Positions 3,806 to 54,144 of a stretch of 64,000 nucleotides of DNA are shown in pieces. A program made the translations under genes and the position numbers. Each line of letters starts with the position of its first letter. Position 1 is the stretch's first letter. The notes below the pieces were generated by a model. It ran no database searches. It worked only from the letters and a program-made list of their open reading frames with translations, and was not told where the DNA came from. The DNA is from Rhizophagus irregularis (lineage: Eukaryota): assembly GCF_026210795.1 (NCBI RefSeq), contig NC_089430.1, forward strand, positions 4,030,001 through 4,094,000, in the 5' to 3' direction.

Positions 3806-4386
3806 TAACGTTTCTTTTTTTATTCTTTTTTGTAGATTTCGGCTTCCTGGATTATTTGGGATATTGGGTAAATATGTAGGGAGGTTTGGAATTTACTTTG
3901 AAGAAACATACTAATGTTTCTTTTATATTGGGATATGGGTAGTGTGTGGGGTGGGTTTACTTTAAACAAACATAATAATTTTATTTTGGTTCAAATTAAT
4001 AAATAATTTCATATTACTATATAATAAACTATAAACTAATGAATATATTATGGCTTGAATTAAAATCCGAAAAAAAAAATTCGGTATAATAATAAAAAAA
4101 TTATCAGATTGAACGGATTCAATCCCAATTTTCTGATGGATTTTGGGGCATACCTATACCGTACTGTAAGTCATATATATGACATACTATGCCGAAATAT
4201 TTCACTTTTCACCGATATATAGATGCCCGATATATAACCGATAATATAGATTTTGACCAGTGTGTATCAGTGATATATTGGGTACCCGATGTGTACCCGA
4301 TATATGTAACTGCCCGATATATATCCGATTTATTACCAATATATAGGTGCCTGATATATACCCGATAGCATAGATTTTGACCAGTG
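3806..4386 (-). mobile_element. Displaced terminal part of CACTG element B (joins 30253 onward before the inversion)
   Basis: Same repeat unit as 30253-30850; terminus gattttgaccagtg at 4386 and a second one at 4262; tta TSD shared with 30253. Confidence 0.75.
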
Positions 4387-7670: not shown

Positions 7671-9445
7671 CACTAGTCAAAATAAGGCAAATCAGAAATA
7701 AAGCAAATCATCTTTATTTCGGCTAAATTTTGGCTAATAATCAATGATCATCTGTATATCAGGTGATATTTGGTGTAGCCGATTTCTGATTTCACTAGTT
7801 GAAAAAGACCAGTCTATATTCAATTAAAAATTCAACTATGATTTATGATTAGACATTGGTCAAATAATCTAATTAAACATCATGTGTTACGCGTATCAAA
7901 AGATATTTTTTAAACTTTTCCCTTTCCCTTCTTTTCACTTCTCTTCGTCTCTTACTCCTTTACTTTCCCTTGTCCTTCCTTATTATCCATCCTTCCCTTC
8001 CTCTATTATCTTTTCCTTTCCCTTTCGTCTTTCCCTTACTTCCCCTTTCGCTCTCTCCCTTTTCTTATACCTTTCTTCTGCCTCTTTTTCTTAAAAGTAA
8101 TGTAAGTTTTGTTTCAAAACTTACATATTTTTTTTTAATTTATTTTTTTTTAATTTTATATTTTTTTTAATTTAAGAAATGAATTAACGTTTCTTTTCAT
8201 TGTTTTTTTTTGTAGGACGCTGACTTTAACACAAAACTGGACTTTAAGATAAAAACGGGAAAGGAGAAGTTTTGTTAATTTAAGAAATGAACTAACGTTT
8301 CTTTTTATTATTTTTTTTGTAGGATGCATAGGAGAACGCTGGCTTTAACATAAAACTGGACTTTAAGGTAAAAAATAGGGGAAGGAAGATGAGATTTAAG
8401 AAACAGATTAATTAAGTCTTTGGTTTTTATTTTTTAAATATTTCGGAATGGTTACTAACAGTTCCTTTTTCTTTTTATGATAGGTTCAGTGGATTTCCGA
8501 TAAATGAATGAACCAAGATTTGTAAGTACGAATCTTAGTTTATTTATTTTTTTTATTACTTAGAATGGTTTACTAACCGTTCCTTTCTTTTATTTTTTAG
8601 GTTTCGTTTAACTTCTGAAGATTAGAAAAAAAGGAACCAAGATTCGTAAGTACGAATCTTGGTTTATTTTTGTTTTTTTTTATTACTTGGAACGGTTTAC
8701 TAACCGTCCTTTTCTTTTATTTTTTAGGTTTCGGTTGACTTCTGAAGATCAAAAAAAAAGGAACTAAGATTCGTAAATACGAATCTTAGTTTATTTTTTA
8801 TTTTTTTTATTATTTTAGAATGGTTTACTAACTGTTCCTTTCTTTTTTTTTTATAGGTAGGCTTCCAAGTTCTGAAGAATGGAAAAAGATCAAGATTTGT
8901 AAGTATATATGAATCTTGGTTAAATTTTTTTTATTAATATTAATGAATGGTTACTAATAACCGTTCTTTTTTTTATAGGTTCAAGTGGATTTCTGATGAA
9001 TGGATAAACTAAAACTAAGATTTGTACTAAAACCAAGATTCGTAAGTATGAATCTTGGTTTATTTTATTATTATTATTTTATTATAATTTTAAATTAGCA
9101 ATATTTATTTGTAATTTAGATAGATGCTAATAATAATAATATAATTATAAAGTTTTTAAGCATTTAATTAATAAATACATTTAAAAAATTTGATAATAAA
9201 AATTGAAATAAATTCAGAAAAAAATAGTCCGATTTTTGTCCAATTTAAGTTCTGAAGTACATCTGATTGATTGTCTGAATTTAGTCTGATTTAATTCTGA
9301 TTTATATCCAATTTAAATTCCAAAGTACATTTAATTGATAACAATCAGAATATATTTTTTTTGCAAAAATTGGATATATTTAAGCCGTAATTCAACCTAA
9401 AATCAGATATCCAATTTTAGCCGATTTGCCTTATTTCGACTAGTG
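7671..9445 (+). mobile_element. Non-autonomous CACTA element with micro-exon-like array
   Basis: 23-bp TIR cactagtc(a/g)aaataaggcaaatc; 3-bp TSD tac. Confidence 0.92.
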
Positions 9446-26330: not shown

Positions 26331-27363
26331 TTATTCAAATAAATCACTTAATGAATTCGAAAACTATGATTTTAAGCATATGCAGGATCTTATAGTTTTT
26401 CTTTCCAATTTGTTACACTTATCAGTAATTAAATTTTTACTGATTGAAAAACATTCTTCAAAGGAACGCTAGTAGAAGGTATAGCTAAATAATCCATCGC
26501 CATCTTAGCAAGTCTAGGAAACTGGGTTTGGTTTACTTTCCACTATTGAAGTGGATCAACGCTTTTATCACAAACTGGTGATAAAAGGTATACTTGAAAT
26601 TTATCAATCTCTTGAGTATATTTTCATTTAAATATTTTTGATGTAATTGAATTTTTATATTCATTATTCAAAGAATTGCTTAAAGTTGAACTTGAGTTTG
26701 GATTAGAATAAGTAGAATTATAAACATTTAAAAATCTAAAAATTAATATTTAAATATTGTTAGTATATATATAATATTATAAATTATAACTAAAAATAAA
26801 TTTTAAAATATTAAAAATATTAACTTTTCGTGAATTTTCTTCCTCTGATCATCATTCCATGTCTCGTCATTATAGTACTTCATTTTAAGCCTTGGATCTA
26901 AAATTGTTACAATAACATACGCATCATTCGTCTTGTTATAGTATTGGAGTAATTTTTCCCAGCTATTTGTAGCTGCTTTTTTAATAATTGATTCTTTATC
27001 TACACTTCCATTTTCATCATCACCTTCGTTTTCATCTTCATTTTCATTTACATTTTCATCTTCAAATATATAATCTTCCATATGATCAATTAAAGCATTA
27101 TATAAAGGAATGAGCATTGAAAGTGTAGGATAAGATGAACCGGACATTAATACTGTTATTTCTTTAAATTTTTCAAGAAATAATTTAACTTTCTCAAGTT
27201 CAGTTCATTTATCATCCATAATAACGAAATTTTTAAGATCTTTTTCAGAAAGTGCAAGGGAATTAAGCGCCTAGTAAAATTTTATAAATTAATAAATATT
27301 AATTAATAATAAATAAAGTTATATAATTTTACTTCTTTTAAATATAAAGTTCTATTGATCATA
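26331..27363 (-). pseudogene. hAT transposase, 3' part (continuation of 32-171)
   Basis: MINRTLYLKE/intron/ALNSL...SGSSYPTLS...ILDPRLK...FPRLAKMAMDYLAIPST; in-frame stops. Confidence 0.87.
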
Positions 27364-30252
27364 CACTGGTTGAAATCATTTCTTTCGGCATTAATACCTT
27401 TCGTCAAAAGTTTGTCATCATCATCATGTGATTCATTACACAATCGGCTAATTACAAAATTCGGAAATATTTCGGCATAAATCAACTGGTCGATTTTTGA
27501 TTAATTTTTGATTGAGTTGTAATATAAAAAAAAACCATAAATCGACCAGTACTTTTTTTTTATCGATTTTTTTATTAACGACACGATCGACTTGGAATAT
27601 TTGGCCTTAATACAAATTGGCCTATATTCGATGATCTACGATTGAATTATGTTAATAATTAAATGTTACACGTTACGTGATATGCGTATTAAAAGTTTAA
27701 AAAAGATTTATCTTATGCATCCTTTTTTAAACTTTTTTAATTTCTTCCTTTCCCTTCCCTTCTTTCCCTTTCCCCCTTTTCTCTCCTTTCCTTTCCTTCT
27801 CTTCCTTCCCCTTTCCCCTTTCTCCTTTCACTTTCTTTCGTCCCTTTTTTTAATTAAAATATGAACGGTTAAAACTAACCGTTCTTTTTTACTTTTTTTT
27901 TAGTTTCAGCACTCGGGTGGACTTCTGAAGTACAGAAATCCAAAGATTCGTAAGTACGAATTCTTTGGATTTTTTTTTATTTTTTTTTAATAAAATATGA
28001 ACGGTTAATACTAATGATAACCGTTCTATTTTACTTTTTTTTTTAGGTTCGACTCTTGGGTGATTTCCGAAGAATGGAAATCCAAAGAATTCGTAAGTAC
28101 GAATTCTTTAAATTTTTTTTTTTGTTTTTTTTTAATAAAATATGAACGGTTAATACTAACCGTTTTCTTTACTTTTTTTTTAGGTTTGGCACTCGGATGG
28201 GCTTTTAAAATTGGAAATCCAAAGAATTCGTAAGTACGAATTCTTTAAATTTTTTTTTTTATTTTTTTTAATAAAATATGAACAGTTAATACTAACCGTT
28301 CTCTTTACTTTTTTTTTTAGGTTTGACACTCGGGTGGGCTTTGAAGATTGGAAATCCAAAGAATTCGTAAGTACGAATTCTTTAAATTTTTTTTTTGTTT
28401 TTTTTTAATAAAATATGAACGGTTAATACTAATAACCGTTCTTTTTTACTTTTTTTTTTAGGTTCGGCTCTCAGGTGACTTCTGAAGGTAAATCCAAAGA
28501 ATTTGTAAGTATGAATTCTTTAAATTTTTTTTGTTTTTTTAATAAAATATGAACAGTTAATACTAACCGCTCTTTTTTACTTTTTTTTTTAGGTTCGGCA
28601 CTGGGGTGACTTCCGAAGAATGGAAAAAACCAAATTTCGTAAGTTCAAAACTTGGTTATTTTTTTTTTGTTTAATTTTTAATATTATGAACGGTTATTAA
28701 CCGTTCTTTTTCTTTTATTTTTTATAGGTTCAGTGTCAGGAGAGGCTTCCAAATTCCGAAGAATGAAAAAAACCAAGATTCGTAAGTATATATATGAATC
28801 TTGGTTTTTTATTTTGTTTTTTTTTTAATTTTATTAACGAACGGTTACTAATAACCGTTCGTTCTTTTTTTAGATTCAGTGAACTTCCAAATTCCGAAGA
28901 TCAGAAAAGAACCAAGATTCGTAAGTATATACGAATCTTGGTTTATTTTTTTGTTTATTTTTTTTAATTTTATTAATGAACGGTTACTAATAACCGTTCT
29001 TTTTTTTAAAAAATATTTTTTAAAATTTTTTTTTCTTCTATTTTGTAGGTTTGGCCTTCAGTTCTTGGGTGTTGAATATACGGGTGAGTTTCGGAGTAAA
29101 AACTTCAAAACTTTTTTTAAATAAAATTATTTTTTTTAATTTTTTTTCTTCTATTTTGTAGGTTTAGGATTTTAGTTATTGGACGTTGAATATATTATAT
29201 GTAAGTTTCGATCAGAATGAAAGAATCGAAACTTTTAAAAAAAAATATTTTTTAATTGTTTCTTTTTTCTTTTTTGTAGGTTTTGACTTTCGGTTCTTGG
29301 GCTTTGGATATGTGGATAAGTTTTGAAGAAACTTCGAAACTTAATTTAAAAAAAAATATTTTTTAATTTTATTTTTGATTATTTTTCTATTTTGTAGGTT
29401 TCAACTTTCGGTTCTTGGGCTTTGGATATATGGGTAAGTTTGAAGTGAAACTTCGAAACTTATTTTAAAAAAGGATTTTTTTTTAAATTTTATTTTAATT
29501 TTTTTTCTATTTTGTAGGTTTTGGCTTTTGGTTGGGCTTTGGATATATGGGTAAGTTTCCACTTCAGATTTTTGGTTGGATAAGTTTCGAAATATTTTGA
29601 AACTTAAATTTTTTTTTATTAAAGAATCGGTTTACTAACCGTTTCTTTATTTTTTTTTGTTAGGTTTCTCTTTCGGACTTTTGTCAGATAGCTGAGTGAG
29701 TTGTAGATAATTTTGGATGAGTAGATGATGGTGGATGATGGTGGATGATGGTGAACGATGGATGGTGAATGATGGGTAGTGGACAATGGATGTGGACGAT
29801 AGTTAATAATGGTTGACGATGGTTGACGATGGTAAATGGTAAATGGTGGATGGTAGATGGTAGGTGTAAATAGACAGATACTGTAGATATTAGAAATTTA
29901 ATTTTTAATAAAGCGAAATAGTAAAATATAATTAATTGATTGCTATTACAAAATTAAAAATAAGCTAAATACATAAAAATCGTTAATAATTAGACAAAAT
30001 TAGACTCAATTTCGTCTAACATTCGGCAATTTGAAATTTAGACGAATGTCTAGTAAAGGTTGACGAATAGTTTATTTCCAATTTTTTAATGAATTTTTGC
30101 CGAATTGTGATTGCCAAGTGGCAGGCGAACTGTGCAAATCGTCCATTTTAATTTTGACGATTTTTTTGGCAATGATCAGCCAAAATTAGACCAACTTTCG
30201 TCCAACATTCGTCAATTTAAAATTTGGACGAAATGGACTATTTTGACCAGTG
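27364..30252. mobile_element. Non-autonomous CACTG element E, copy 2 (inverted, fewer internal units)
   Basis: cactggttgaaa ... ttttgaccagtg; reverse complement of 424-3805. Confidence 0.92.
27860..29700 (+). repeat. Tandem array (~14 units) of micro-exon/intron-like units
   Basis: tactaac..ttttag/46-nt segment/gtaagt repeated with ~120-140 bp period. Confidence 0.82.
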
Positions 30253-33200
30253 TTAGTACGTTTCTTCAAAGTAAATTCCAAAAAAACCCACCCTCACACA
30301 CTTACCCAATATCCCAAATAATCTAAGAATCCGAAATCTACAATTGTAAAGAATAAAAAAAGAAACATTAGTACGTTTCTTCAAAGTAAATTCTGAAAAA
30401 ATCCACCCCACACACTTACAAAGACCCTGGGAAGACAAAATTTACAAAAAAAGAATAAAAAGAAATGTTAGTACGTTTTTTCAAAGTAAATTCCGAAAGA
30501 ACTCATACACATTTACCAATATCCCAAATAATTCAGGAAGCCGAAATCTACAATAAAGAATAAAAAAAAAATGTTAGTACATTTCTTCAAAGTAAATTCT
30601 GAAACCCGTAAATCTGAAAAAACATTTCACATAAAAAACCCATACACAAAAAATCCGGGAAGATGAAATCTACAAAAAAAAATAAAAAAAGAAACGTTAG
30701 TACGTTTCTTCAAAGTAAATTCCAAAAGAACCCATACACTTACTTACCCAATATCCCAAATAATTCAAGAAGCTGAAGTCTACAAAAAAGAATAAAGAGA
30801 AACGTTAGAAAAATAAATAAATAAATAAAAACAAAAAAGAAACAAAATCCCCTCCTCCTAACTTACCTTCAAGCCGAAATCCAGTTCCAGGAAGGTGTTC
30901 CCTTAGAAAAACGAACGTCCTAAGCCGTTTAAGCCAAATTCCGAAGGGGAAGACTGAAGGAGAATAAAAAATATTTTTTTTTAAAAAAAAAATAAAAAAA
31001 AATAGGATTTGACCAGATTATCTGATCAATCCGGTCAATCCAGTCATCCATGTAATATCTGATCTAGGATTGCTTGCCAAAACTAGGGTTTCGCAAAATC
31101 ACCTGAAGTTTCGGTTAGGATCCAATCATTTATTGATCATTGATAATCTAATAAAAATCAATACTTAAAAAAAAAATATTTCATTTTTTATTTTTTTTGT
31201 AGGAGTCGGACTCCTATTTTTTGTAGAACGCCGGACCTTGGAGACCAGGACGAACTGTCAAACCAATAAAGGTAATGTGGGAGAAGGAGATCGGGGTTAT
31301 GTGTTTTACTGTAATTAAGAAACGTTTTTAACGTTTCTTTCTTTTTTTTTGTAGAACTAGGACGCTGGACTCTTGGAAACGAATCCGGACTTAGAATGTG
31401 TGTAAGGAAAGAGGAAGGGTTAATATTAAAGAAATGTTTTTAACGTTTCTTTCTTAATTTTTTTTATAGAACTAGGACGTCAGACTCTTGGAAGCGAATC
31501 TGGACTTGGATAATGTAAGGAATGGGAAGAGGGGGAAATGTTTTTTTAATATTATGTAAAGAAACGTACTTACGTTTCTTTCTTTATTTTTTTGTAGGGC
31601 TAGGACGCCGGACTCTTGAAAACGAATCCGAACTTGGATAATATTAGGAATAGGGGAGGGGAATTGGTTTTTTGAATATTAAAGAAACGTACTAACGTTT
31701 CTTTCTTTGTTTTTTTGTAGGACTAGGACACCAGACTCTTAGAAGGCGTATTTACATTTGATGTAAGTTGGATGGGTGTAGTGTGTCATGTGTGTTAAAT
31801 AAGAAACGTTTCTAACGTTTCTTTCTTCTTTTTGTAGGAAAGCCGGACGAAATTACGAACTGGACTTTTGAGTGAAGGTATTAATGGGAAAGAAATTTAC
31901 TTCTCTTAGTAACGTTACTAACGTTACATTTTTTTTTTTATTGTAGGAACGCTGGACGAATTATACAAACTGGACTTTAGTGAAAGGTAAATGAGGAAGG
32001 GGGAGTTTCACGTTTATTTTTTTTCCTTAGTAATGTTACGCGAATTTTTGCGCATGTGATTTCCGATATTATATGGTGATCTGATAAAATTTGATACATT
32101 TGTGTATATGTCAATTGGTGATATTATGTGCCGATTTATATCGATATATAACTGTTGGTTTGTGTACACCGGATTAACCTAATAAAAGATATTGATTTTA
32201 TTTATTTTATTTTATTATATTTACATAAGTAGTATTATATATTATTCATATTATTATTGTTTATATTATTTATTTTCTTTATTTGTATTGTTTATATATA
32301 TAAGATTTTATTAGAAGTTATTGTGGGGAAATTAGCTCAATAGTAATTAATCGTCTAAAATTATCATTTGTACTTTATTAAAGTTGCTTATAATCGTATT
32401 GTATTGTATAATCGTATTGATATATTACGAAATATCACGATGAAACTTTGACAATAGGAAATCAATAGCCCATCAATAGACATCTTTAGATTAGATTTTG
32501 CCTTGATGACAGAAAAAAGAGATGACAGTTAGATAAAATAAGATATAAATATACCTTCTGCCAACTCTTTGATAGAGTAGTTACCAAATAGCTATTTTTT
32601 TTTAGTTATCTTGTCGTTAAATATCTTTAAGATATATTTCCTATCCCTTTCTGTCACTTTTTATCACCTTGTTGTAAAGACCCGAATTTACATCTACTAA
32701 TAAAATTGTTATATTTTGGTCAATATTACACGTTGTTTCTAACAGACATATAACAGTTGTTGTTATAACTATTGCGTACTATTCTTTATCGTATTTTGTA
32801 GTTGTTATCTTAACGATTCTTAACGAACAATACCGGAATACCAAGATAGGTAGTATTGAGTAAGAATCCCGTTGATAATCGAGTGTTTATACGATATAAT
32901 ATCGATAGTTATCTGACTCTTATAACCGGTAACAGTAACATTACTTTTTTTTTCTTTTGTAGGTTCTTGGAGTTTCTAAATAAATATTTATTATTTGATA
33001 TTACGAAAAATCAGTGATTTACCATGTTGACTGGTATGCATGATGGGTGACAAATAGGCTACCGATAGGTACATGATTTGTGACTAATTGGTATATTTAA
33101 GTAGGGTTTTGTATTATTTAAAGCGATAAAGAGTTTAACTTGCAGTGTAATTCTAGTATAAATAGTATAAATGCATTTTTTTTATTAATTATAATAATCC

Positions 33201-34362
33201 GGTTAAAATCCATGGCCCAATCAGAATTTGTTATTGTAATCAGGCGATTAATCACATGATTTCGGTATTTATATTTCGCACTTTGTTTATTTTTTTTTTC
33301 TTTCGTAAAAGCCCTTTCTCTTAAACTTTTTATTTAAAACAAACTCTTTACTTAGTTATTATGAAATAATATTAATATATTTTTTTTTTTATTTTTATAT
33401 TTAGAAATAAACATAAAGGTATATTTTCATTATGCTTGTTTTTTTCTTTTTATATATACATTTTCTATTGACATTCTAATACTTTTTTTCTTTTCTCTCA
33501 CTAATGTTTTCTACCACTTAACATTTTCTATTAATATTAAATACTACTAACATGTTTTTATTAACATTCTCCTATTAACATTTTCTATTTTACTAACTTT
33601 TCTTTCTTCCTATTAACATTTTTACTAATATTTTCTATATTTACTACTAACGTTTTTATTAATATTTCTATTTTATTTTCTCCTATTAATTAATATACTT
33701 ACTAATATTTTCACTGATATTTCTTTTAAATAATAAACAGATATAACAAAACAAGCAAAGAGGTAATTTTATTATCATTGCTACTTTCAGTAGAACTTAA
33801 CATATCACTGGTCGAATAAAGAAGCATCGGTATATGAAACATCAAATAAATATCGGATCATATCGGAAAATCGAAAATTTTCTGATATTTCTTAAACATA
33901 TAAGGCAAGAATCGATATACTAATTAAGTACGATATTACATTACATAGAAACCGATATTTGTAATATTCGTAATACGAAAAAAATCAGGTTTTTTGTGAA
34001 AAGCTATCAGTTAGCCGATATGTCTTTGATATAGTATATGCACAATCGGAAAGCTTTCATAGGTCTATCGATTTTTTGTTTTATTTAAATATATCAAATA
34101 TATCCGTATATTTTTTTTTTATGCGAAAAATAATTATTTTAAAATTTTTTTTTCTTTTCGTGTGAGAAAAATAATTATTAGTATTTTTTGAAACGATATA
34201 AAATTAGCCAGTATAATTTTGTAAAACAATAAAAAATTGCATCATTATTGTTTAATTTTTTTTTTCTTTTCGTGAGAAAAAATAATATTTTGTGATATAT
34301 TTTTGCGAGACAATATTTTTTTTTCTTTTTGTGAAAAATAATTATTTTTAACGAAACAATAT

Positions 34363-37300
34363 TTAAATATTAAATTTTCTATTTATTGGAATAACCGATA
34401 TATATTTTTTTGGATTTCTCTGACCAACTTCGAAACTTCCTGAAACAAATCGACATAAAATATTATGTATGGGAATGATGCAATCCCTTCCCATTTCAAA
34501 AAATTCTGCTTTCCACAACTCAATATTACAAGATTTATCATCATCTTTATCTATCTTACAGTGAAACCTTATCTTGTGGTTTTCAGCCGCCTTATACCAT
34601 CTTACAAAGGCTAAATAATGTGTTTTAGGACCCTCTGGTAACCAAATGGTGTGTTCAAAAAAAAATTGAATCTGGCCGGGATATGTATCAGACGAATTAT
34701 CGCTTAAGATAAAGCGTGCCAAAATCTTTGCTGATTTTGCATGCTGGGAAGACAATGTTGACCCAAATATTTCCGTTCCAATTTTTAATCGGCTAAATTG
34801 ATTGACTTTCGAAAGAATTGGAATAGATCCGTCCGGAGCATTATGAAGTTGCGATAGTGTGACAAAATTTTTATCATACGTATTGTGATAAAATTCTGCC
34901 AATAAAAGTAAAATATCTTGCTGTAAAGATATATCTTTTTTTGACGGACCTAAAAAGGAGCCCGGAAATGGTTCAGTACCAAAAGCTGCGCCTTCTTCTA
35001 TATTTGCTGATAATAATCGAAACGTTCGGTGGTCTTCATCGCTGTACATAGAAAGGCTTCCAACCGAATCATTAAGCTTTAATATTTCAAGACTTTCCCG
35101 AAGCTGTTGATTTTGATCAGCGTGAGATGTTAATTCATCAAGAATGGTATTATTTTGCATAATTTTCATAAGTTCTGGTTCAATTTTTCTTCGACTGTTA
35201 TGTAACGATCCTAAAAATGTGATAGAATAATATTAATATACAGTATATTATGATAGATTATTGGTATCTGGAGATGATCAAATTACCCAATAACCCGTTC
35301 ATTCGTTCCATTGAGTAGCACCAGAACGAGTATAGAGGGCCATAATCCAATGAACATTCACATAAATGTATACACAAATGCAAATTAGGAGAAATTTTTT
35401 TAGGCCCGTAAGTTTTCTCAATTTCTTTAACCATTTCTAGCAAACGTTGGTGAGCTTCTATAAGACTATTTTTTGATACTATTCTGCATACCAAAATATT
35501 ACAAGCACGCACAAAGTTTGCTAAAATTCTTCGATCTGGCTCTTTCAAAAGATCCCAGGTAATAGACGTTGCATATATTAACATAAATGTTTTCCACTGG
35601 TCTGCAGAAAACCCAGAAAAGCCTTCTCCTGTTGACATTTTGTTCGGAAGCCTACCAATATCCGCTGGTACCTGGATTCGGTTGGCCCTTTCTTGCATAA
35701 GTAATAGGTTTTCCGGGTTTAATTTTCCTTCTTCAATCCATAGTCTCATTACGATCCACTTAGCAATGCCTAGGAAAAGGCAGTGCATGGGATCCACTAC
35801 AAGAAAACGTACAGGATTAAAGTAAGGTAATCGATATATTTCGGACCATCGTACCAGGGTTTTTGATACATGATTCCGACGTTGCTCTTGTGTTTTGCAA
35901 TTTTTCCATGCAAGTGCATTATTTTTAATTTCCTCAACATTTCTTTCTATAAACCAGCTATCTATATCGGCTAATCCTCCAAAATTCGGTTGATTCCTAT
36001 CATCAAAACTGGCATGTTTAAGACATCGATGGCATGCAATTCTCGCAGATATATACCCACAAAGTTTTCTTGCAGCGGGTATATCGCAGGAACAGCATAT
36101 AATAGCACCTCTAATTTTTTCACCATTGGGATTCTCAAAAGTTTCTGATAAGTCTATACCATGCCATAGTTCAATTAATTGATCAATGAGAGGAGCCAAG
36201 TAGTGATTTAGATGATGTAATTTTGGTTCTTTGAATACCCGGAATTAACGCTAATGTTAATATATTGGAAGGTTTAAACCTCTCATTTCGGGGCAAGTTG
36301 CAAATGATGGCATAAATTGCTCCTGTGCTATATTGAGAATTTTCGTAAGGTTGGAACCAATCGATATTGAGCATTATTCCGAGGTGAGTATTTGCCGTTT
36401 CTGGCCGAAAGAAGGTTACCCCATTATCATCACTAAATGACTTCCATATTCTCCCGTCATATACATCAGTAAGAATCTCTGGGTCAGAAGGACGGTTAAC
36501 CCACTTTCGGCATGATTCTTCAAAGCCTTTTCGCTTGAATAGATTATTCAACTGATGTTTCAAGCTGACCGTAGGAAATATTAAATTTGGCCTTTTAATT
36601 ATACCATTTTTTGTACAAACTTGCTTATACAAAGGAGTTCCGCAAGCATTTTTTTTGTGACTCATCGGGTGGTTAGGAAAATCTTGGTATATGCAATTCG
36701 TGAATTTAGGCGTAAGGTTAGGATTACTGCTAGATACATCAGAAACCTTATACAATTTACAGCACTTTTCACAAGCCGCATATTTTATCAAATGAGCACA
36801 AATTCCGAGATTCTTTTGTGCCATATAGAGAGATGTAGGAAATGTAGAAAACAAGTTTTCGTCTATATTCACAAGAACGTAGCGGAAAAATTTAAAGAGA
36901 TAATTTATCGCTACGTTAGATAGCCGACACCTCTCCTGGTACTTCAAGATCCATACAACAATCCACAAAAAAGGGTGATCTAGTCCTTCAGCATGCCCAT
37001 AATTGCTTTCTCCTAATTCCATTTCAGGTGCATCAAAATTCACTTGGTAATCTTCTTCTGAATCATCTGATGAATATTCTGAAGTAATATCTTCAAAGTT
37101 TCTTTCATTGTCTTCTTCAGATGCATTGTCACCATTATCAGATAATAGTTCATTTATTATTTCCGGAAGAGAGGTTTCAGACCTTCTGTATTTTTGAGAA
37201 GCAATTGGTGCTCTTTTTACTAAAAAGGGATAGCTCTCTTCTTGCGGTTCTTCGTTATAGCTCATATCGTTACAATTAAAATCATTTTCTGGATTTGGAG

Positions 37301-37511
37301 GCGCTAATGGAATTTCTGGTGCTTCAGGAAAATTACGGGTAGTTTTGCGTTGAGGTTTAGTCTTGTTCTTGGTGTGAGATGCTTTAGTTCTAGGATCTAC
37401 TGCTTTTCCTTTGCAACCCTGACAGTAGCATGGTTCAAACTTTCGATTTCGGGGAGGACGAGTATAGGGAGTTTTCTGAACACTTTGAACGCTAATTGTA
37501 TTATTAGACAT
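34363..37511 (-). pseudogene. CACTA/EnSpm (Tnp2/Transposase_21-type) transposase; one frameshift near 36233, intron 35211-35286
   Basis: NIDWFQP, NLPRNER, CDIPAARK, DPMHCLFLG, PNLH..H, YGP..FWCYSMERMNG; removing one base restores PG.KEP. Confidence 0.92.
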
Positions 37512-37786
37512 TTTGAATTCTTTTAACAAAGAATGAGAAATTTATTATTTATTATAATAATTATATAATGGTATTTTATTGTTTAGCCACAATTTGTGAT
37601 TTATAGTTTAAAGTTAGTTTGTTTCAATTATGATCGTAACGCGTTTATATGATCTACATACGTATATAGTTTAACTAATTTAAACTCTTTCTTTTTTCTT
37701 AATTTTCTTACCAGATCCTCGGCTTTTCTTACTTTGCCTAATATTATCTATTTATTATTTTTTTTCAAGTACCTAATTATACAACA

Positions 37787-39956
37787 ATGAACAAAAACAA
37801 GTAAGTTAAAAAAATTTTTAGAATCATGCAAAATTACAGATTCTAAGATTATCTTCGATGGTATAGAAAAACTTCGTTACAAGAAAAAAGAGTTAAAAGT
37901 CAAACTCCATATTCTCATCAAGATGACTCTTCATACTCAGAAGAAATTTCGTATTCTCGTCGGAAAAGTATTTCATTAAACATGAATAGAAGTCAAACTC
38001 GAGATAATGTTTCTTTAAACAGAAATAGAGGCCGGACTCGGGACAATGTTCCTTTAAATAGGAGCAGAAGTAACTCTCCATACACTCATCGGGATAATAT
38101 TTCGTTAAATAGGAGCAGAAGTAAGCTCGCCATACGGCTGGCAGGACAATGTTTCGTTAAATAGGAATAGGAGTAACTCTCCATACACTCATCAGGATAA
38201 TGTTTCTTTAAACAGAAATAGAGGCCGGACTCGGGACAATGTTCCTTTAAATAGGAGCAGAAGTAACTCTCCATACGCTCGCCAGGACAATGTTTCGTTA
38301 AATAGGAATAGGAGTAACTACTCCATACACTCATCAGGATAATGTTTCTTTAAACAGAAATAGAGGCCGGACTCGGGACAATGTTTCGTTAAATAGGAGC
38401 AGAAGTAACTCTCCATACGCTCACCAGGATAATGTTTCGTTAAATGGAAGCAGAAGTCGCTCTCCGTACTCTCGTCGGGGCAATGTTTCGTTAAATGGAA
38501 GCAGAAGTCGCTCTCCGTACTCTCGTCGGGGCAATGTTTCGTTAAATGGAAGCAGAAGTCGCTCTCTCGTACTCTCATCGGCAAGTCATCTCGTTAAGCA
38601 GGAATAGAAATCGGTCTTCATACGCTTCTCGAGAAGATGTCTTACTAAATAGGAATAGAAAACGAACTCCACATTCTTCTCATCGGGGAAATTATCTGTT
38701 AAATGTAAGGGATATTGAAAGAGAAAGAAGGGAAAGTAATGTTGGTGAAGAAAATCATGGAAGGAATAAGAGCAGAGAGAGAAATCTTGAAGGTAATTTC
38801 ATAAAAACATGATAGATATAAAAATTGTATTTCGGCTACTAATAATATATCAGAAATTTCAGAATTACGTACGGCCATCTCGGATTTAGGAAGAGAAGTA
38901 AGAGGACTTCGTCAAGAAAAGGAAGATCAACCAAGGACGCAACATTCCTGGTCTCCTGATCCATCATCAACTAGATATACTAAAGTCTGGAAAGTTTTAG
39001 AGCCAATGGATCACGAATACAAGAAAGCTTTCCGGGTTAGTATAAGATATTTGTGCGTAAACATGTTAATCTTTATTTAAAATTTTTTCCTAATATAGGA
39101 CGAAATTGTCCAAATTCTAAAGGGTTTAGATGATTCTTTGACGATAGATCATAAGAACCGTTGGACTGACATCGAAAGACATGTGACTCAAGATACCATT
39201 CCAGCTATAAAGAGAGTTCTCGGTAATAAATTTCAGTATACCGATATAGAACTGAAGAAGGTTTTACAGAATCTTCATCGCCATCGAAGGGATGCTTACA
39301 ATGTTTCAAAAGATCCTTTAAAATCGAAAGTGAACAAACGACGAACTGGTATAAACACCAGGAGAAAAGATGTGAGTATCAGTTTCATATTAATTTATTG
39401 ATTTTTTATTACATTTTAATACTAATATTTATTCGTTATTTTATTATATTACAAAAGAAAAAGGAGAGACGGCAGAGAGGATTTCGTCATATGTTAAGTA
39501 GGAGAGATCAGAAGCTAACAGATCTTCAGCCTTCTATACCATGGGATGATTGGATTGAAGGCTTAGAAGCGATTATCAATGACTCAAGTTATCATTCAGA
39601 TGAAATTTCAGAGTCAGACGAAGAGAAAGTACAAGAAGAAAAGAACAGAAATATTCGCCCATCACGAAACGAAAATTCAAACCATGTGATTCACGTGTAC
39701 GATAAACAATGGAGATCTAGTAAGGTAGGTTATATACATAAAATAAGAAATATATTTATTTACATTTTACTAATTAAATTTTTATCTATAGATTCGAAAT
39801 TTTTTACGACATGCTGATTTGACGGGAGAAAGTATTCAGAATATAAAAGTAGGGAGGAAGAGGTGGTATAATGATCAATTGTATATAGAAAATAATTCAA
39901 AACCACCTCGTAATGCACCGGCATGGGCAATTTCATCTTCATACCGTTCTGAATAG
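37787..39956 (+). pseudogene. Second (accessory) ORF of the CACTA element with an Arg/Ser-rich tandem repeat; multi-exon, with frameshifts in the repeat
   Basis: Repeats NRSRSNSPYTHRDNVSL; C-terminal SYHSDEISESDE...WRS...PPRNAPAWA; GT-AG introns at about 38793, 39036, 39372 and 39725; start codon uncertain. Confidence 0.7.
37985..38700 (+). repeat. Coding minisatellite (51-bp and 36-bp units)
   Basis: Recurrent aatgtttcgttaaataggagcagaagtaactctccatac. Confidence 0.9.
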
Positions 39957-41221
39957 ATACTTATTTTAAAGGTCTTTGGCGAAAAGTATCGATCGTTAGA
40001 AATAATTTCCGTTCTGTATTTAAAGATCAGCAATTTATTGATTTAAATTTGTATTAATTATTTATTACTAGGAAACTTTTCGTGGCATTTAATATTAAAT
40101 TCAATATTTAAATTCAATTTATTTTTAATAAAAATTACAAATATGATATAAATATCGTACTAATATTATATATAGATTATTAAGTATATAAAACATATCA
40201 GAAATTACATTATACTTATATCGGAAGAAAATCTAGATAAATCGGGAAATATTTAGGGGTACCGATATTTCTCTCTATCCGCTGATATTCATAATAAAAT
40301 CGTCTGATGTGACAGAACCGAAATTTACATTAAAGATGCATGATTTGCGCCAAGAACCGGTCACAAATCGGGTGGATCGATCAGCTGCCATTCAGGTCAA
40401 AATCGAAAATGTATAATAGGGCTATCGGGTATATGAAATTTACCCGGTACCCTTCATTTATTTCCAGTGTATTACATAGTATAATTATGTTCAACTTTAT
40501 TTGATTTTACATAGCAGATAGTGTAAGATTTGTATTATTGCTTTTATGTAAATAAATTTATAAATTTTAATAAAATTGAATTTCATTTAGCCAAAATTAA
40601 AATAAAAAAAAAGAGATATAAATCTATTAGTTTTAATATGAAATTGTCAAACGTATACAATAAAAATATATATTACCAATATTTTACATATTTTACTACC
40701 TGATATATGTGTGTTAAATGTATGATATCTATAATATATATCACTGATATTTTACTACCCAATATGTGTGTGTTAAATGTATGATATCTATAAGATTTAT
40801 CACTGATATTTTACTACCCAATATGTGTGTGTTAAATGTATGATATCTATAAGATATGTTACTGATATTTGACTACCCGATATGTGTAAGATATGTATAT
40901 GATGTTTACATGATGTGTCACCAATTTTCTACATTTATACTACACATATCAGGTACCCGATATGTGTAGTATTGTTAAATATCATACACATATATTACAT
41001 ATATTATACACATATCAGGTACCCGATATGTACCCAATAGCACCAATTTTGACCAGTGATAATTAATTACGATTTTGTAATTTCAGATTTTGGATTTGCC
41101 AATTGAATTTCGGAAATAACTATACTTGTAAAACAAAAAAAAGTTTGTTCAAATTGAATCAATAGAATCCAAGATAATTATATAATACTAATTATTATGT
41201 ATAATATTTAATATTTAATAG

Positions 41222-42766: not shown

Positions 42767-45022
42767 TTACCCTGGTGAAATTCACCAGGTGATTTCATAT
42801 TACACAAACGTGTAATGCATATTTTGTTTTTTGCTTTCTTGTAGTATTGTTTTCAAAATGACCAGCTTTTACTGGAACTTTTTAAGGTAAGATTTTTTTT
42901 ATTTTCTTATTACTTCGCTAGTTTAATGTTCTTTTTCTCTTATGCTAACTTGTTAACTTGTTTTTCAGAAAACATCAATTTCAAATAACTTCAAGAAGTT
43001 AAGGTAAACTCATTTTTATTACTAGTATTTTTATTTTTCTACCATTCCCTTTACTTCCACTTTGTTTTTAATTATCCTTTTCATTTATCATTATCCCTTT
43101 CACTCAGTTCATATCAGTTTTCATCATTCTATATTGCTTCATATCACTTTTCATCATTCCATATCGCTTCATATCAGTTTTCATCACTTCATATTGCTCT
43201 ATATCATTTTTTATCACTCTATATTGCTTCATATCATTTTTCATCACTCCATATTGCTTCATATCATTCCATATCACTTTTCATCACTCCATATCACTTC
43301 ATATCAGTTTTTATCACTCCATATCGCTTCATATCGGTTTTCATTATTCCATATTGCTCCATATCACTTTTTATCACTCCATATCACTCCATATCACTTC
43401 ATATTGATTTTCATCACTCTATATCACTTCATATCGTTTTTATCACTCTATATCGCTTCATATCATTTTTATCACTCTATATTGCTTTATATCATTTTCA
43501 TCACTCCATATTGCTTCATATCGTTTCATATCAGTTTTTATCACTCCATATCGCTCCATATCATTTTTATCACTCTATATCACTTCATATCATTTTCATC
43601 ACTCCATATTGCTTCATATCATTTCGTATCAGTTTTCATTACTCCATATCGCTCCATATTATTTTTCATCACTCTATATCGCTTCATATCATTTTTCATC
43701 ACTCCATATCGCTTCATATCATTCCATATCAGTTTTCATCACTCCATATCGCTTCATATCAGTTTTCATCACTCCATATCGCTTCATATCAGTTATATCG
43801 CTTCATATAGTTTTTCATCACTCCATATCGCTTTATATTGTTCCATATCAGTTTTCATCATTCCATATCACTCCATATCGGGTTTCATCACTCCATATCA
43901 CTTTATATCAGTTTTCATCACTCCATATTGCTCTATATCACTTTTCATTACTCTATATCGCTCCATATCATTTTTCATCACTCTATATCGTTTCATATCA
44001 TTTTTCATCACTCCATATCGCTCCATATCATTTTTCATCATTCCATATCATTTTTTATCCTATGTTTACTAATTGGTCCCCAGTGATTTTTTTGATGATA
44101 TATTCATATCTGTAATTTTTCAGATGATATTTTCATGCTCACGTATTTTTATAGTTTATTTATACCTCTCCCACTCTCTCCCATCACTGGACGTTAGCTT
44201 ATGAGATAAAAGAGTTATTTCGCGTATCATAAATATGTGATTTTCAACGGGCCGCGCCGTAAAATCGATGATATTCATGACTTTCCCCGTGAAATAACTA
44301 TTACATATCATTTTTCATCACTCCATATCGCTCCATATCATTTTTCATCACTCTATATTGCTTCATATTGTTTTTCATCACTCCATATTGCTTCATATCG
44401 TTTCATATCAGTTTTCATCACTCCATATCACTCCATATCATTTTTATCATTCTATATCGCTTCATATCATTTTCATCACTCCATATTGCTTTATATCGTT
44501 TCATATCAGTTTTCATCACTCCATATCACTCCATATCGTTTTTATCACTCTATATCGCTTCATATCACTCTATATCGCTTCATATCGTTTCATATCAGTT
44601 TTTATCACTCCATTTCATTTTGCAACATTCCACTTTATTTTTCATCATCTCAATTCACTTTGTATTGTTTCATTTTGTTTTACATCATCCTATTTCTGTT
44701 TTCATCAACCTATTTCACTTTCATTTCATTTTTCATTATTATAAAGGATTATATATTATGCATTACTATAGGTTTTAAATTAATGAAAAATCTGGATTAA
44801 ATGGTTAGTGGATGGGTGTAATAGTTTAATTGAAGTTATATTAATTTAAAAAGAAACTTTTTGTTAATAAAACTTTAAAAATTTATGCTTAAATGGTCAA
44901 TAGAAAAAACTTCTTTTTACAATGTTTATTCAAATAAAAAAAATTTGATGCGATGAATTTTACTAAATTTTAATATAATAATAAATATCACATGATATGG
45001 TGAATTTCACCTCTGGTGAGCG
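42767..45022. mobile_element. TTAA-flanked (piggyBac-like) non-autonomous element with internal satellite
   Basis: Inverted ggtgaaattcacca near both ends; ttaa on both sides. Confidence 0.55.
43090..44620. repeat. Degenerate minisatellite (tcatcactccatatcgcttcatatcagttt and variants), two blocks
   Basis: Seen directly; explains the overlapping H/I/F/S-rich ORFs in all three frames. Confidence 0.92.
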
Positions 45023-45043: not shown

Positions 45044-45287
45044 TAAGGTTGCTTGTCTAAACCTCTTCAAAATCCTACGATTAGTTTCGTCAAAATTTTA
45101 CTATAGATTTATTATAGTTTCGGCAGAGTTTTGGCAGTTTCGGCATTTATAATAAGTTTCGGCAGTTTCGCCTTTCTCCAAAGTTTCGCCAGTTTTTTAA
45201 TATAACTTTAATATAGTTTCGGCAGAATTTCGCTTTTCGGCAAAACGCCATCTTGCCTAAACCCCTAGGTTTCGGCAAGCAACCTTA
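45044..45287. mobile_element. 244-bp hAT-type MITE (copy of 175-418)
   Basis: Same TIR; 8-bp TSD attaaaat. Confidence 0.92.
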
Positions 45288-49065: not shown

Positions 49066-50067
49066 GGGTTGATCACCTTTTCTCAGTGGTAAGTAACCGA
49101 GACCCTCATTAAGCCTGAGTATGGTGAGGTCGCAGGTTTAATTCCACTGATTACAAAATTAAACGAATTTTACTGCAGACGCTACAACCAATAGCGTGAA
49201 GATATAGGGATTAGCGTAGTTGGACTGCATCATAGTGAATTAGTGTGTACAGTTAGGCCGCACATTTCAACTAAGGGTCATGATGTCCTTCTAACGTTCC
49301 CTATGAGGCCATTGGCATGTCCGCAGTCCTGTTCTTGAGGTCACTACTATACTTTGGAGGGACTTCCTGTCCAGGTGGTCACTCCACGATACCGCTTGGG
49401 GTCAGTAATGGCTAGATGGTTATCCTAGATGGTAAAGCTGAGGGTGCAATGTCTTAGTGGTAGTTAGACCTTCTGTTAGGTCTTAGACCAACTAAGGTGT
49501 TCATGCACAGAACAGGTAGCATGATTATGGGGTTCAATTCCCTACTCTTTGGGTCGTTGGTGATCCCTGGTGGTTGATACCCACTATAAAGGGTGATCCT
49601 GGACAGATGCCTGCTACTTCCTGTCTGGATGGTCCCTCATGTATCCCACAAAGTATACCGGCAAAAGGGTACCAGGGGTAAACAACTGTACTATCAGTGC
49701 TAGGTAATCGCGGGCTGTAGTGGCCTTTGAGTGAGACCTCGTACCTAAAATGGTGGTATGGAAGGGTACTAGATGGTTGATGCTACCTGTCGAAAGTCCT
49801 CCATGAAAATAGGTGCTCTCTAAAGGTCGTAAAATAAATTGAGTACCAGTATCATGCAATGGGTTTAAGGACGAGTAGACGGTATATTCCTAGCTTCAGA
49901 TCAGCCTTAAATGTGGCCTGATGGGGAATGTCCTCATATATGATGCTGTCTGTTTGAGGAACAATAAGTACTCAGTGGTATGGTTACCCCTTGGGGATGA
50001 TAGGATACTAGTCTGATGATGCTTCATAAGAAGTAGAGGGAGACTTGGCCGTAAAAACTTTAGCAAA
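49066..50067 (+). mobile_element. ~1-kb SINE-like structured non-coding insertion with tRNA-like modules
   Basis: 16-bp TSD ataaaagaataaaatt; GC far above background; A/B-box-like motifs; nested long-range complementarity. Confidence 0.75.
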
Positions 50068-52417
50068 ATAAAAGAATAAAATTACTACTATTCAATTTGT
50101 CTCAGCAAAACAATTCTAATAAGCTATAGTACATTTTTGTACAATTATTAGATGTCAAGTTAGTTAATATATTCTTTATATAATTATGATTATAAACAGT
50201 TCTTTTTAATATAAGATTTTGATGATAAGTGTGATAGTAACTATAGATAGATTGTGACTATATAAGATAGATTTTAATAATAAAGTGTTTTGAACATTCA
50301 ACTGGTGTGACACTGGTATGACTATATACAGTGTTGTCATGGGATACAAATACGGACATAGGACAGCTAGAACCGGACAGTCCCTGTCCATATCCTGCAC
50401 TTTTTATGTTCCTGACATATCACGGATATTATATATAAATCACATGATTATTTTATTTTACGATTTAAATAAAAGTTTATGTTTAGAACAATGATTATTG
50501 ATTAATAATTAGTATATTTATGTTTAAATATAAAATCCATTTATTATTTTGCAGAATTAACATCAGAGATACAGCAAATTTACATCAATTATTAAGTTTA
50601 CATCTATATTATTAAAGAGTGTTAACAAATCCCATTTAGTACTAGTATCATTAGCGGGATGAGTAACATTACCTATTTGTGTATTACTTTGTTCTTCAGT
50701 TTCTTCATCAAGCTCAACATTTTTTTCTTTCTCTAGCATTTCAGCCCAACCTTGAAGATATTCACTAAAATCATTTTCTAGCCAGGGTTTAATGATTTAA
50801 TCATCTAAATCATCTTCTATTGGTTCAGAATTAGTTTCTAAATTAGCAGCTGAACTATTATCTCTAACATTTTCCAACACAAGATAGGTCGAAAAGTGAA
50901 AAATTAGGCACCAATCGGTCACCAATCAGGTAGCTGATTGGTGACTAATTGGTAACCGATTAGTGCCTGATTGGCATTTTCACCAAATACCGTCACCAAT
51001 CAGGCAGTTTGCTAACTTTTGATCCAGTGATCAGAAAAGGATGAAATATAGCTCATTGGAATCATCTCAACATGATTAATCTAATGGTAGTAAAATCGCA
51101 TTTCTAGGATTAATACATAATGAGAAATTAAGTAAAATATAAACACTAGTCGAATGATGTTAAATCGGGAACCAATCAGGTGACCGAATTCCACCCGATT
51201 GGTCCCTATTTTTTTAAAAATTTTCATCAATTGGTAAACCCGATTGCTGCCAAAAGATGGCGCAAAAGGAGGATACTTGGGTACCAATCGGGATATTCAA
51301 TAAAGTACAATCGGGTATTAATAGTTATCAATAGGATATTTACTGAATATTTACTATTTGACATATCAGTATACCAATTGATAACTTTTTGATTAAATGT
51401 CAATATACTGATTGATTACTTTTTAATTAATTTATAACAACGCATTTTTATTTAAAATTATTTGAAATTTACATTAAAATTACAAAAACCAGAAATACTA
51501 ATTACTAAATTATTTAAATTATTTAATAATTCCATATATATTTACTAATATTATCATTGAATTCTTATACTTTCAAAACTTTACCAATTCAAATCCAAGT
51601 CAGGATCAGAACCGATAGACCTACAAAATGAAGAAAAAATTAAATATTTTTTAAATATTAAAAGTGTTTCGAAATGAAACTTTTCAAAACTTACTATTAC
51701 CGATCTAAGCTGATGGTAACTTAAAAAATAAAGAATATTTTTAAAAAAGGTTCGAAATGAAAGTTTTCAAAACTTACTGTTATCGATCCAAATCCAAGTT
51801 CAAAGATCGGTGCCAATAGTTCCTACAAAACAAAGAAAAAAAATTTAAATATTTTTTTAAATATTAAATAAAAGTAAAAAAGGTTCAAAACGAAAGTTTT
51901 CAAAACTTACCATTACCGATCCAAATCTAAGTCCAAAGATCAGAGTCGATGGACCTAAAACAAAGGAAATAAAATTAAATACAATATTTTTTTTCAAAAA
52001 AAATATTAAAAATTTCGAAAGCTAAGCTAAACTTTCAAAACTTACCGATCCCATATCGAAGTCTGGGATCGTTCCTAAAAAAAATTTGAAAATGGAACAT
52101 TAGTAAAGTTCACTAATGTTCCTAATTTAAAAAAATTTCCCCCTCCCCTCTTTATTTACCTTCTGAGACGTTTCGTCAGTTCTGAAGCGTCTTGAGGATC
52201 CTACAATAAAAAAAAAATGGAACGTTAGTAAATGACACTAACGTCCATAATTTAAAAAAAATCCCCACTTCCCTTCTTTAATTACCTTCTGAGGCGTTCC
52301 GTTAGTTCTGTGTCTGGAAGGTTAATAAAAAAAATCATTTTTTTTTTTATTTTTTTTATAAAAAAAAAGATCATGTCTGATAATCTGTTATTCAGACTTA
52401 TCAGATCATGTGATCTA

Positions 52418-53523
52418 CAGTCAACTCCCTCTATAGTCACTCCCGTTATAGTCACATTCTACTATATAGTCACACCAGTTGAATGTTCAAAACACTTTAT
52501 TATTAAAAACTATCCTATATAGTCACAATCTATCTATAGTCACTATCACACCTATCCTCAAAAATCTTATATTAAAAAGAACCGTTTATAATCACAGTTA
52601 TATAAAGAATATATTAAATAACTTGGCATCTAATAATCGTACAAAGATGTATCATAGCTTGTTAGAATCGTCTCACTGAGATGAATCGAATGGTGGTAGT
52701 TTTATCCTTTTGCGATCACTGGCTGACGAGTTATTCAACAAAATGTTAAGCATCGGCATTATTATATTTCTTGATTTACGTTTACTGCGCCATTTAACAT
52801 TTTGCTAAATTTCTCAGTACCTAGTGATTGTAAAAAGACGATTAATAGCTCGTTGGAATCGCCTCATCAAGACGAATCGAATGGTGGTAAGCTCATCTCT
52901 CTGTGATCAATATTGACGGAGTTACTACTTAAAAACCATTTAATATTTTTTAATTTCGGAAAATGATCTAGTGATTGGATTTCGATTTATTTTATACCAT
53001 TAGATTCGTCGCTTTAAGACGAATCGAATGGTAGTAAGATTGTCTCTCTAGGATCAATATTGGCAGAGTTATTACACAAAAATCATTAATATTTTTTAAT
53101 TTCGGAAATTAATCTAGTGATTGGATTTCGATGTATTTTATACCATTAGAACCGTCTCATCAAGACGAATCGAATGGCGGTAAGATCGTCTCTCTAGGAT
53201 CAATATTGGCAGAGTTATTACACAAAAACCATTAATATTTTTTTAATTTCGGAAATTAATCTAGTGATTGGATTTCGATGTATTTTATACCATTAGAACC
53301 GTCTCATCAAGACGAATCGAATGGCGGTAAGATCATCTCTCTACGATAATATTGGCGGAGTTACGATACAATAAAGTTTTGAATATAATTTTGGCTAAAA
53401 TTATATTAATTTTTGGCCGGAATTATGATATACTAATATAAGAAATTTTTTATATAGTCACATCTCTTTATAATCACCAAATATGGACTGTCCCAAATGT
53501 GTGACTATAAAGAGAGTTGACTG
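52418..53523. mobile_element. MITE P copy 3 (empty, CpG-rich, inverted)
   Basis: Same TIR; TA TSD; one extra ~140-bp internal unit. Confidence 0.93.
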
Positions 53524-54144
53524 TATCTGATATGATAACATCAAGTGGAATAGTGTCAGAATGGCAGAATTGATTCTATAAAAAATTTTACTGTTATTTC
53601 TGTAAAAATGAATCTTTTACAGATCTATTCATGGAAAATATAAATAATTTGGTAAATTCCATGATATAAGGTAAAATCAAAAAATTGGAACAAACGTTCT
53701 GATAAATTTTTGCATAACAGATATGCAATTAAAGTTTTGAAGTCGAAACTTTGGGATTCTAGTATCCAAATCAGAACCGATTTCCCTAAAAAAAAAAGAA
53801 AAAAAACGTTATTTAAAGAACGTTTTTTTTTAAAAAAGTTTCAAGTTTTGAAGTTTCATAACGTTGGTAACGAAATTTCGAAACATTGGGATTCCGGTAT
53901 TCAAATCGGAACCATTTCCCTACAAAAAAAAAAAAATGTTAAAATAACATTTTTTTTTAATAGTTTCGAAAAAATTATTCAAAACTAACCTATGGGATTC
54001 GGTATCCAAGTCGGAACCGATTCCCTACAAAAGAAATAAAAAAACATTAAAATAACATTTTTTTTAAAAAAACATTTCGAAGTTTCAAAGAAAGAGAAAC
54101 TTTGAAACTTTGGGATTTTGGTTTCCAACTTCAGAACTGATTTC

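Follow-up and report, generated by a model that had tools for sequence, protein, structure and literature searches.

The window examined here, a stretch of 64,000 nucleotides of Rhizophagus irregularis DNA (positions 4,030,001 to 4,094,000 of contig NC_089430.1), is AT-rich eukaryotic DNA with 27% GC and carries intron-rich cyclin and GTPase genes, as well as 2 copies of an element that we refer to as E. Copy 2 was located at 27364-30252 on the forward strand and had CACTGG..CCAGTG ends, with the flanks ATA to the left and TTA to the right. Copy 1, which contained 18 units, was located at 424-3805 on the reverse strand and had the flanks TTA to the left and ATA to the right in the orientation of the element. 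The left ends of the 2 copies were 93.9% identical in sequence and the right ends 93.6%. In copy 2, the left end with the terminal repeat and subterminal short motifs covered 27364-27700, and the right end with subterminal repeats followed by the terminal repeat covered 29950-30252, both on the forward strand.

Fungal EnSpm elements are defined by 5'-CAC..GTG-3' ends and 3-bp duplications (PMC12730594), and CMC elements have expanded recently in R. irregularis (PMC8647823). Terminal inverted repeats of this kind were present in E, as were 3-bp target duplications, ATA and TTA, which were exchanged between the 2 copies. Subterminal short repeats were also identified: there were 8 occurrences of the motif TTCG[GT]C within the rightmost 306 nt and 3 within the leftmost 335 nt, compared to 2 in the 1,811-nt array. 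There was no open reading frame of at least 90 amino acids on the array strand of E, and no coding frame for a transposase was found in it. By the features tested, E is thus a non-autonomous EnSpm/CACTA transposon, and the earlier proposal that the array is transposon-borne was borne out by the ends and the target duplications. A related element at 7671-9445 on the forward strand, with CACTAG..CTAGTG ends and a TAC/TAC target duplication, contained a CT tract, a donor, and type III followed by type I units (see below). A candidate autonomous partner with CACTGG..CCAGTG ends was located at 33806-41058 and encoded an EnSpm-type transposase on the reverse strand; the match to Transposase_21 had an E-value of 3.9e-06 and a score of 26.7 bits, which is below the Pfam cut-off of 28.6, and no matching target duplication was found at its ends. 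The same segment also held a second intron-containing gene on the forward strand, with a serine/arginine-rich tandem repeat at 37970-38700.

The interior of E was filled with a tandem array of short units. In copy 2, 14 acceptors consisting of a T tract and TAG were identified on the forward strand at 27903-29663, and these delimited 13 internal exons of 33 to 54 nt (41% GC) and introns of 78 to 128 nt (18% GC), whereas the opposite strand of the array contained 0 acceptors and 0 GTAAGT donors. In copy 1, 17 acceptors were detected by a script and the first one, which has a shorter T tract, was read directly, giving 18. These numbers, as well as the single polarity, agree with the preliminary description, which had counted about 14 and about 18 units and had placed a CT-rich tract before the array. 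Such a tract was present at 27740-27850 on the forward strand, where it is a likely promoter or first exon, and just 5' of it was a 15-bp perfect inverted repeat (27691-27736) that may have a promoter-like role. It was also noted that the element at 7671-9445 was arranged like E around the palindrome and CT tract. The last acceptor of copy 2, at 29663 on the forward strand, was followed on the same strand by a putative last exon (29664-29950), with a (GATGGT)n-like repeat and an AATAAA at 29907.

The units were arrayed as previously claimed, but not of a single design, since 2 unit types were present in copy 2. The first 8 were of type I (27862-28990, forward strand), each with a branch hairpin, a T tract, TAG, an exon and the donor GTAAGT, and with hairpins on both the donor and the branch point. 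Their exons of 43 to 54 nt were located at 27904-27949, 28047-28092, 28184-28229, 28321-28366, 28462-28504, 28593-28638, 28728-28781, and 28874-28920. The remaining 5 were of type II (29049-29663, forward strand), in which the donor was paired by a downstream arm within the intron, the branch motif was weak and the branch hairpin was missing; their exons of 33 to 39 nt were located at 29049-29083, 29162-29200, 29280-29315, 29398-29433, and 29518-29550. A type III unit, whose branch hairpin is different again, filled the element adjoining E as well as part of the element at 7671-9445. A 20-nt unit motif had 19 matches in the window, compared to 0.01 expected (0 of 100 shuffles). A scan of metagenome contigs for exact motif matches yielded 4 loci, L001 to L004, all with type I arrays, and in L002 (305-1053) the terminal repeat of the right end of E stood next to a type I array, the two being oriented to each other as in E. 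The DNA word depth at unit motifs reached up to 77,610, compared to 141 in a flank bin, a value that is not to be read as copy number.

The splice signals of the units were strong. The donor GTAAGT was found in 33 of 45 array introns from an automatic parse and the perfect branch motif TACTAAC in 13, compared to 0 of 19 in both cases for host introns, which were read by eye from 3 genes in the window and not checked with RNA. Array donors are therefore stronger than host donors. Among 49 type I units from the window and L001 to L004, anchored on the branch hairpin, TAG followed the T tract in 48, and 38 of 46 donors were GTAAGT; these units share ancestry, so the counts are descriptive and not independent trials. 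The arrays thus displayed the GT..AG ends, branch motif and pyrimidine tract of U2-type introns, with the branch motif weak in type II. The claim that every unit carries the full set of signals held in part: GTAAGT was present in 11 of the 13 donors of copy 2, whereas a perfect TACTAAC was present in only 4 of its 14 units.

Many of these signals were located in hairpins. A donor hairpin with an 11-bp stem and an AAGT loop was confirmed at 28084-28109 on the forward strand, and it recurred at 28221 and 28358. It had been described as capping the donor; the exon end and the GT were indeed paired, whereas the AAGT was in the loop in type I units. In type I units, 14 of the 16 donors had a paired GT and 16 of the 17 branch sites a paired A; of the 17 type III branch sites, 12 had a paired A. 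The 22-nt branch hairpin quoted earlier was found as an exact match only in the inverted copy, 3 times, and with 1 or 2 changes in copy 2. Donor windows folded better than shuffled sequences (z < -2) in 13 of 16 type I, 5 of 12 type II, 1 of 7 type III, and 0 of 19 host cases. Stable folds were found in 11 of 17 type I, 9 of 17 type III, and 1 of 16 host branch-point windows, and in 18 of 150 random windows. In each of types I, II, and III the donor or the branch point was covered, each time by different hairpins. For type I, the fold energies of the sense and antisense strands were similar. The segment 27300-29000 gave 11 weak Rfam matches, all far below the gathering score, and thus no sign of an intron-encoded snoRNA. 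Furthermore, splicing removes one arm of the donor hairpin, and the suggestion that the array releases structured introns found no support in these 2 observations.

The donor arms co-vary. The arm pair accaagattc/gaatcttggt changed together at 28772/28796 and 28911/28933, as had been pointed out. Across 26 distinct donor arm pairs, an average of 5.27 of 7 positions formed Watson-Crick pairs with their own partner, compared to 4.08 ± 0.20 with shuffled partners, and the observed value was reached in 0 of 10,000 shuffles. DNA template switching gives the same pattern of arm co-variation, for which reason the co-variation is not proof of a role in RNA. Single CpG changes in the hairpins had left a G-U pair 24 times and an A-C mismatch 9 times (de-duplicated by eye; 2 mis-anchored rows are included in the co-variation and G-U analysis), which was not different from the 32 versus 18 in the exon CpG control (p=0.48). 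CpGs were intact at 139 of 184 hairpin sites, compared to 52 of 105 exon sites, which fits either selection or arm repair. Fully compensated CpG-to-TpG/CpA pairs occurred in hairpin arms, and palindromes were common in the array elements outside the signals too, including in exons and T/A tracts. Of the proposed structure-gated splice sites, the hairpins on the signals therefore stand, whereas gating does not follow, since template switching fits and the G-U excess is not different from that of the control.

To examine splicing, reads were aligned to the type I units (27300-28990) at 87% likeness. Of the listed runs in which the stretch occurs, none is recorded as RNA, which speaks neither for nor against its transcription. 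The RNA runs, chosen by species label, were X21 and X22, which are polyA RNA runs of one study, and X24, which comes from a different study and is of uncertain type; X15 consisted of DNA contigs. The aligned records numbered 805, 1,019, 63, and 1,132 for X21, X22, X24, and X15, respectively, and most aligned reads were 90% to 95% alike to copy 2. Only 43 of 805 (X21), 29 of 1,019 (X22), and 0 of 63 (X24) reads were 99% alike to the locus, and the reads thus mostly derive from other copies. In RNA reads, agreement with the DNA ended at the exon base adjacent to GTAAGT, after which the letters of an exon start followed. Among the joints listed (15 of 25; for loose ends 24 of 285), the joint at donor 27950 was supported by 9, 13, and 3 reads in X21, X22, and X24, that at 28093 by 4 and 8 RNA reads, that at 28639 by 8 reads of X24, and a further joint by 6 reads of X22. 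An exon end joined directly to an exon start before 27916 in 27, 32, and 18 reads of X21, X22, and X24. Among the X15 joints listed, none was at donors 27950 or 28093; 29 X15 joints that fell on repeats were left out, and contigs are no proof that the DNA lacks the joined form. In the DNA examined, the exon-end motif was followed by GTAA in 40 of 78 cases and by an exon start in 0 of 78.

In X24, about all reads over the first exon diverged from the DNA on reaching its donor (13+6 reads, with a depth of 19). Unspliced reads through the T tract, TAG and exon were also frequent, with 64, 92, and 19 reads at 28871 and 36 and 39 at 28860, and in X21 and X22 they outnumbered the spliced reads among the rows listed. 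The libraries carried no strand information, with both mates falling on both strands, and antisense RNA or DNA caught by A tracts is a possible source of the unspliced reads. These data show that type I units of the family are spliced, partially, in RNA from related copies. Precise removal from RNA, as expected of U2-type introns, was accordingly observed for type I, with reads mostly from related copies. The predicted junctions were recovered at 27950, 28093, and 28639 at the family level, and the idea of a heavily spliced transcript stood to that extent, with many reads remaining unspliced. Differences in depth between exons and introns were not taken as a sign of splicing, as the DNA run showed the same pattern and the aligner skips repeats. 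Joints that went backwards were likewise rejected as circular RNA, as the units are near-identical and the reads come from other copies.

The exons did not encode a protein in any consistent manner. Type I exons were 30 to 54 nt long, with lengths that were multiples of 3 in 13 of 46; their stop codons were spread over all frames (19, 20, and 14), and the joined exons of each E copy had 3 to 12 stops in every frame. No frame-preserving exons or single open frame were found in the E arrays, in agreement with the earlier description of the transcript as non-coding. An open reading frame across one metagenome array nevertheless matched R. irregularis proteins, and a profile of 8 such proteins matched 222 database proteins at E≤0.001, and also 143 cluster representatives. 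All 119 named array-related proteins were R. irregularis gene models, as were 10 of 10 further matches checked, and several had alternative isoforms. Signatures of 2 or 3 frames of one exon were mixed in 92 of the 119 array-derived proteins, and 0 of 22 tested contained a Pfam family above the cut-off. Profile searches for a host homolog of the exons returned only array-derived, domain-less gene models, and a type III stretch had no match when compared to proteins of 30 to 165 residues. The array-derived proteins are best understood as gene models that were annotated across arrays of non-coding exons. A coding micro-exon gene for a repeat peptide, which the public annotations and their isoforms would suggest, is largely refuted by the lack of a kept frame, the stops in all frames of the joined exons, the mixing of frames and the absence of Pfam families, and we consider it hardly tenable.

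In 4 proteins, P0083, P0112, P0120, and P0122, the gene models joined array exons to long unrelated sequence, which hints that arrays can be spliced onto neighboring transcripts. We also noted that the tract before the array is represented by its purine strand at the start of P0007, P0008, and P0083 and by its pyrimidine strand at the start of P0185, and the orientation of the tract relative to the array is therefore variable.

Conservation between the 2 copies of E gave little indication of constraint. No difference was present among 39 acceptor sites, and 3 were present among 78 donor sites. Signals and arms were not significantly more conserved than neutral parts (p=0.12 for CpG and 0.31 for non-CpG sites, with low power), nor did the signals alone (3 of 110 versus 42 of 1,382 sites changed, p=1.0, likewise with low power). 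An uncorrected comparison of the copies seemed significant, but this was lost after CpG and non-CpG sites were separated. The expectation that splice signals would be better conserved than neighboring positions was thus not borne out between these copies. Relative to non-CpG sites, CpG sites had changed 8- and 13-fold faster in the arrays; for 5 array-less repeat pairs the factor was 3.8 to 14, with one of the 10 comparisons containing no CpG. Transposon CpGs are methylated in R. irregularis (PMC8647823), and since CpG decay in the arrays was as high as in array-less repeats, both E copies appear to have been silenced like the others, which weakens the suggestion that the array licenses these copies against silencing. 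The case for selection instead rests on deeper time, with unrelated unit types sharing near-optimal signals that host introns lack. In type I units of the window and L001 to L004, CpG decay on the spliced strand favored TpG over CpA in hairpins and exons alike, and this skew may come from transcription-linked deamination.

We are highly confident of the core of these results at the family level, namely transposon ends and duplications around 14 to 18 units of one polarity, with strong signals, no frame, and exon joints beside unspliced reads. For the meaning of the array we favor, at slightly short of an even chance, gene mimicry by splicing, in which strong introns would be kept because gene-like processing aids the spread of the element. 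Transcription would start at the palindrome or CT tract and end near the AATAAA, and selection among element lineages would preserve the splice signals, as suggested by 3 or more unrelated unit types that share only these signals. The hairpins would slow or tune splicing and not block it. Young source copies processed as intron-rich genes could stay transcribed and accessible to a partner transposase, and might benefit by evading RNA-guided silencing or by being transcribed more; in C. elegans, introns are an obstacle to silencing by small RNAs (PMC5554785). Ordinary inserted copies, including both copies of E, would later become methylated and decay. A further version, for which we hold out somewhat less hope, is that splicing itself is the selected cargo, with unrelated units amplified repeatedly, each with perfect splice signals beneath a hairpin design of its own, such that the element would be coated by spliceosomes, pass as a host gene and adjust how fast it is spliced through RNA structure. 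It is rather unlikely, in our estimate, that the array is a neutral, splice-competent minisatellite. In that case slippage or gap repair within the element would have amplified one strong exon-intron unit, DNA template switching would have produced the hairpins and would repair them, and use of the signals by the spliceosome would be incidental. The palindromes outside the signals, the compensated CpG pairs (as one template switch would give), the lack of a G-U excess over the exon control and of measurable constraint between the copies, and methylation like that of other repeats are all as such a process predicts, yet it does not account for near-optimal signals in all unit types despite their unrelated exons and hairpins (0 of 19 host introns), for stable folds on type I donors and on type I and III branch points at far above the random frequency, or for the single polarity of each array.

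The array could alternatively act as a splicing trap, in which strong signals attract spliceosomes, the hairpins stall them, and the stalled transcripts are passed on to RNA-dependent RNA polymerase and give rise to small RNAs regulating the family. The paired GT and branch A and the many unspliced reads agree with this; stalled spliceosomes trigger siRNA in Cryptococcus (PMC6643885, citing the work of others), and 41% of the R. irregularis small-RNA loci are in unannotated regions (PMC8647823). Complete exon-exon joints were however common, about all first-exon reads of X24 left at the donor, the unspliced reads may be antisense RNA or DNA caught by A tracts, and silencing itself is of little gain to a selfish element, which makes a trap improbable. 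EnSpm ends typically carry inverted motif repeats, and the similar fold energies of the 2 strands in type I would also suit palindromes that serve as binding sites for transposon or host proteins or as cruciforms, with splicing as a side effect. We find such a role at the DNA level very unlikely, as the subterminal motifs are different and concentrated at the ends (8 in 306 nt versus 2 in the 1,811-nt array), the hairpin sequences differ among unit types with the same termini, and the asymmetric T tract, TAG and donor would be left unexplained. Gene mimicry by splicing remains the reading that we prefer.

E shares its termini, 3-bp duplication, subterminal repeats and apparent lack of a transposase with EnSpm/CACTA (CMC) elements, but differs in that its interior is a tandem array of 14 to 18 non-coding units. 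Like E, the soybean CACTA element Tgm-Express1 has CACTA ends around spliceable exons and introns and gives chimeric transcripts, but it carries 5 unrelated host fragments, whereas E carries one short, tandem-amplified unit with signals under hairpins (PMC1947982). Introner-like elements and the repeated stwintrons of fungi are also families of near-identical structured spliceosomal introns (PMC3609843, PMC8469720), and many such introns were seen in the array units; those elements are dispersed singly in host genes, whereas in E both exon and intron multiply in tandem as cargo between terminal repeats. Single introns at unrelated host-gene sites, as expected of introners, were not observed, as all units in the window and L001 to L004 were in tandem arrays, and the array donor was found in 0 of 19 host introns within the 64 kb examined. 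Transposon-derived long non-coding RNAs of Blumeria hordei resemble E in being non-coding transcripts from fungal transposons, but are antisense, unlike the built-in, repeated exon-intron unit of E (PMC10648671). Splicing serves as a self/non-self cue in the stalled-spliceosome RNAi of Cryptococcus (PMC6643885) and the intron barrier of C. elegans (PMC5554785); these are cases of host surveillance, whereas E would be a transposon with amplified strong introns. The introns of Glomhopper are scattered in a coding gene, unlike the array of E (PMC13465315). The strings "intron" and "splic" had 0 occurrences in the main texts examined on R. irregularis transposons, and no introner reports for Glomeromyc* taxa and no description of an E-type array were found in the open-access literature searched; the supplementary files and repeat libraries that accompany PMC8647823 and PMC11075540, as well as Repbase, may contain E-type consensus elements. 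E is thus apparently an undescribed variant of the EnSpm/CACTA transposons that is real, spliced and non-coding.

If the arrays are selected, they would represent a transposon strategy not found in the literature searched, in which strong introns are amplified without a protein to protect, and whether splicing marks DNA as self against genome defense could be examined in a fungus that offers many natural copies, some carrying arrays and others not. Should splicing be the cargo, the family would serve as a natural experiment on the licensing of foreign DNA by introns in fungi. Even if the arrays are neutral, at least 222 "hypothetical" R. irregularis proteins are explained as translated non-coding transposon exons, which bears on the count of orphan genes and on unclassified repeats, the latter making up 24% of the R. 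irregularis genome (PMC8647823).

The 2 copies of E also bound an apparent 24-kb inversion. The flanks were ATA/TTA at one copy and TTA/ATA at the other, and the duplications are thus exchanged. A hAT transposase frame at 61-170 on the forward strand broke off after ..TRWNSTFD at the outer flank of copy 1 and resumed at 27363 on the reverse strand, at the inner flank of copy 2, with MINRTL.., which we take to be a hAT transposase motif; a downstream exon also matched hAT. A type III array was split at matching points, with parts at 3806-3960 and 30253-30870. From the swapped duplications, the split frame and the split array it follows that each copy had its own duplication and that the 24 kb between them was flipped, by recombination or by misassembly; the family may accordingly rearrange the R. 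irregularis genome.

The neighboring element that hosts the insertion of E (30253-32050) contained type III arrays at 30256-30870 on the reverse strand and 31200-32050 on the forward strand. Both pointed away from a central stretch of 330 bp and are arranged as if transcribed bidirectionally, to judge from their layout. Other CACT-ended elements in the window were filled with other unit types with different hairpins. At 51144-55920 on the reverse strand, intron-like arrays of other unit types started at a CACTAG end; they covered 51540-52340 and 53700-55600 and were interrupted by 2 insertions at approximately 52418-53525 and 54146-54932, and in one unit type the whole exon was a hairpin. A 244-bp palindromic miniature element was present at 175-418 and 45044-45287 (96.7% identical), the former within an 8-bp duplication that included the first bases of the terminal repeat of E. 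A long, low-complexity tandem repeat of the CATAT/CATCA type at 43070-44740 was apparently located within another palindromic-ended element. Finally, the segment at 49090-50050, between 2 copies of another repeat family, had a GC content of 44%, compared to 27% for the window.
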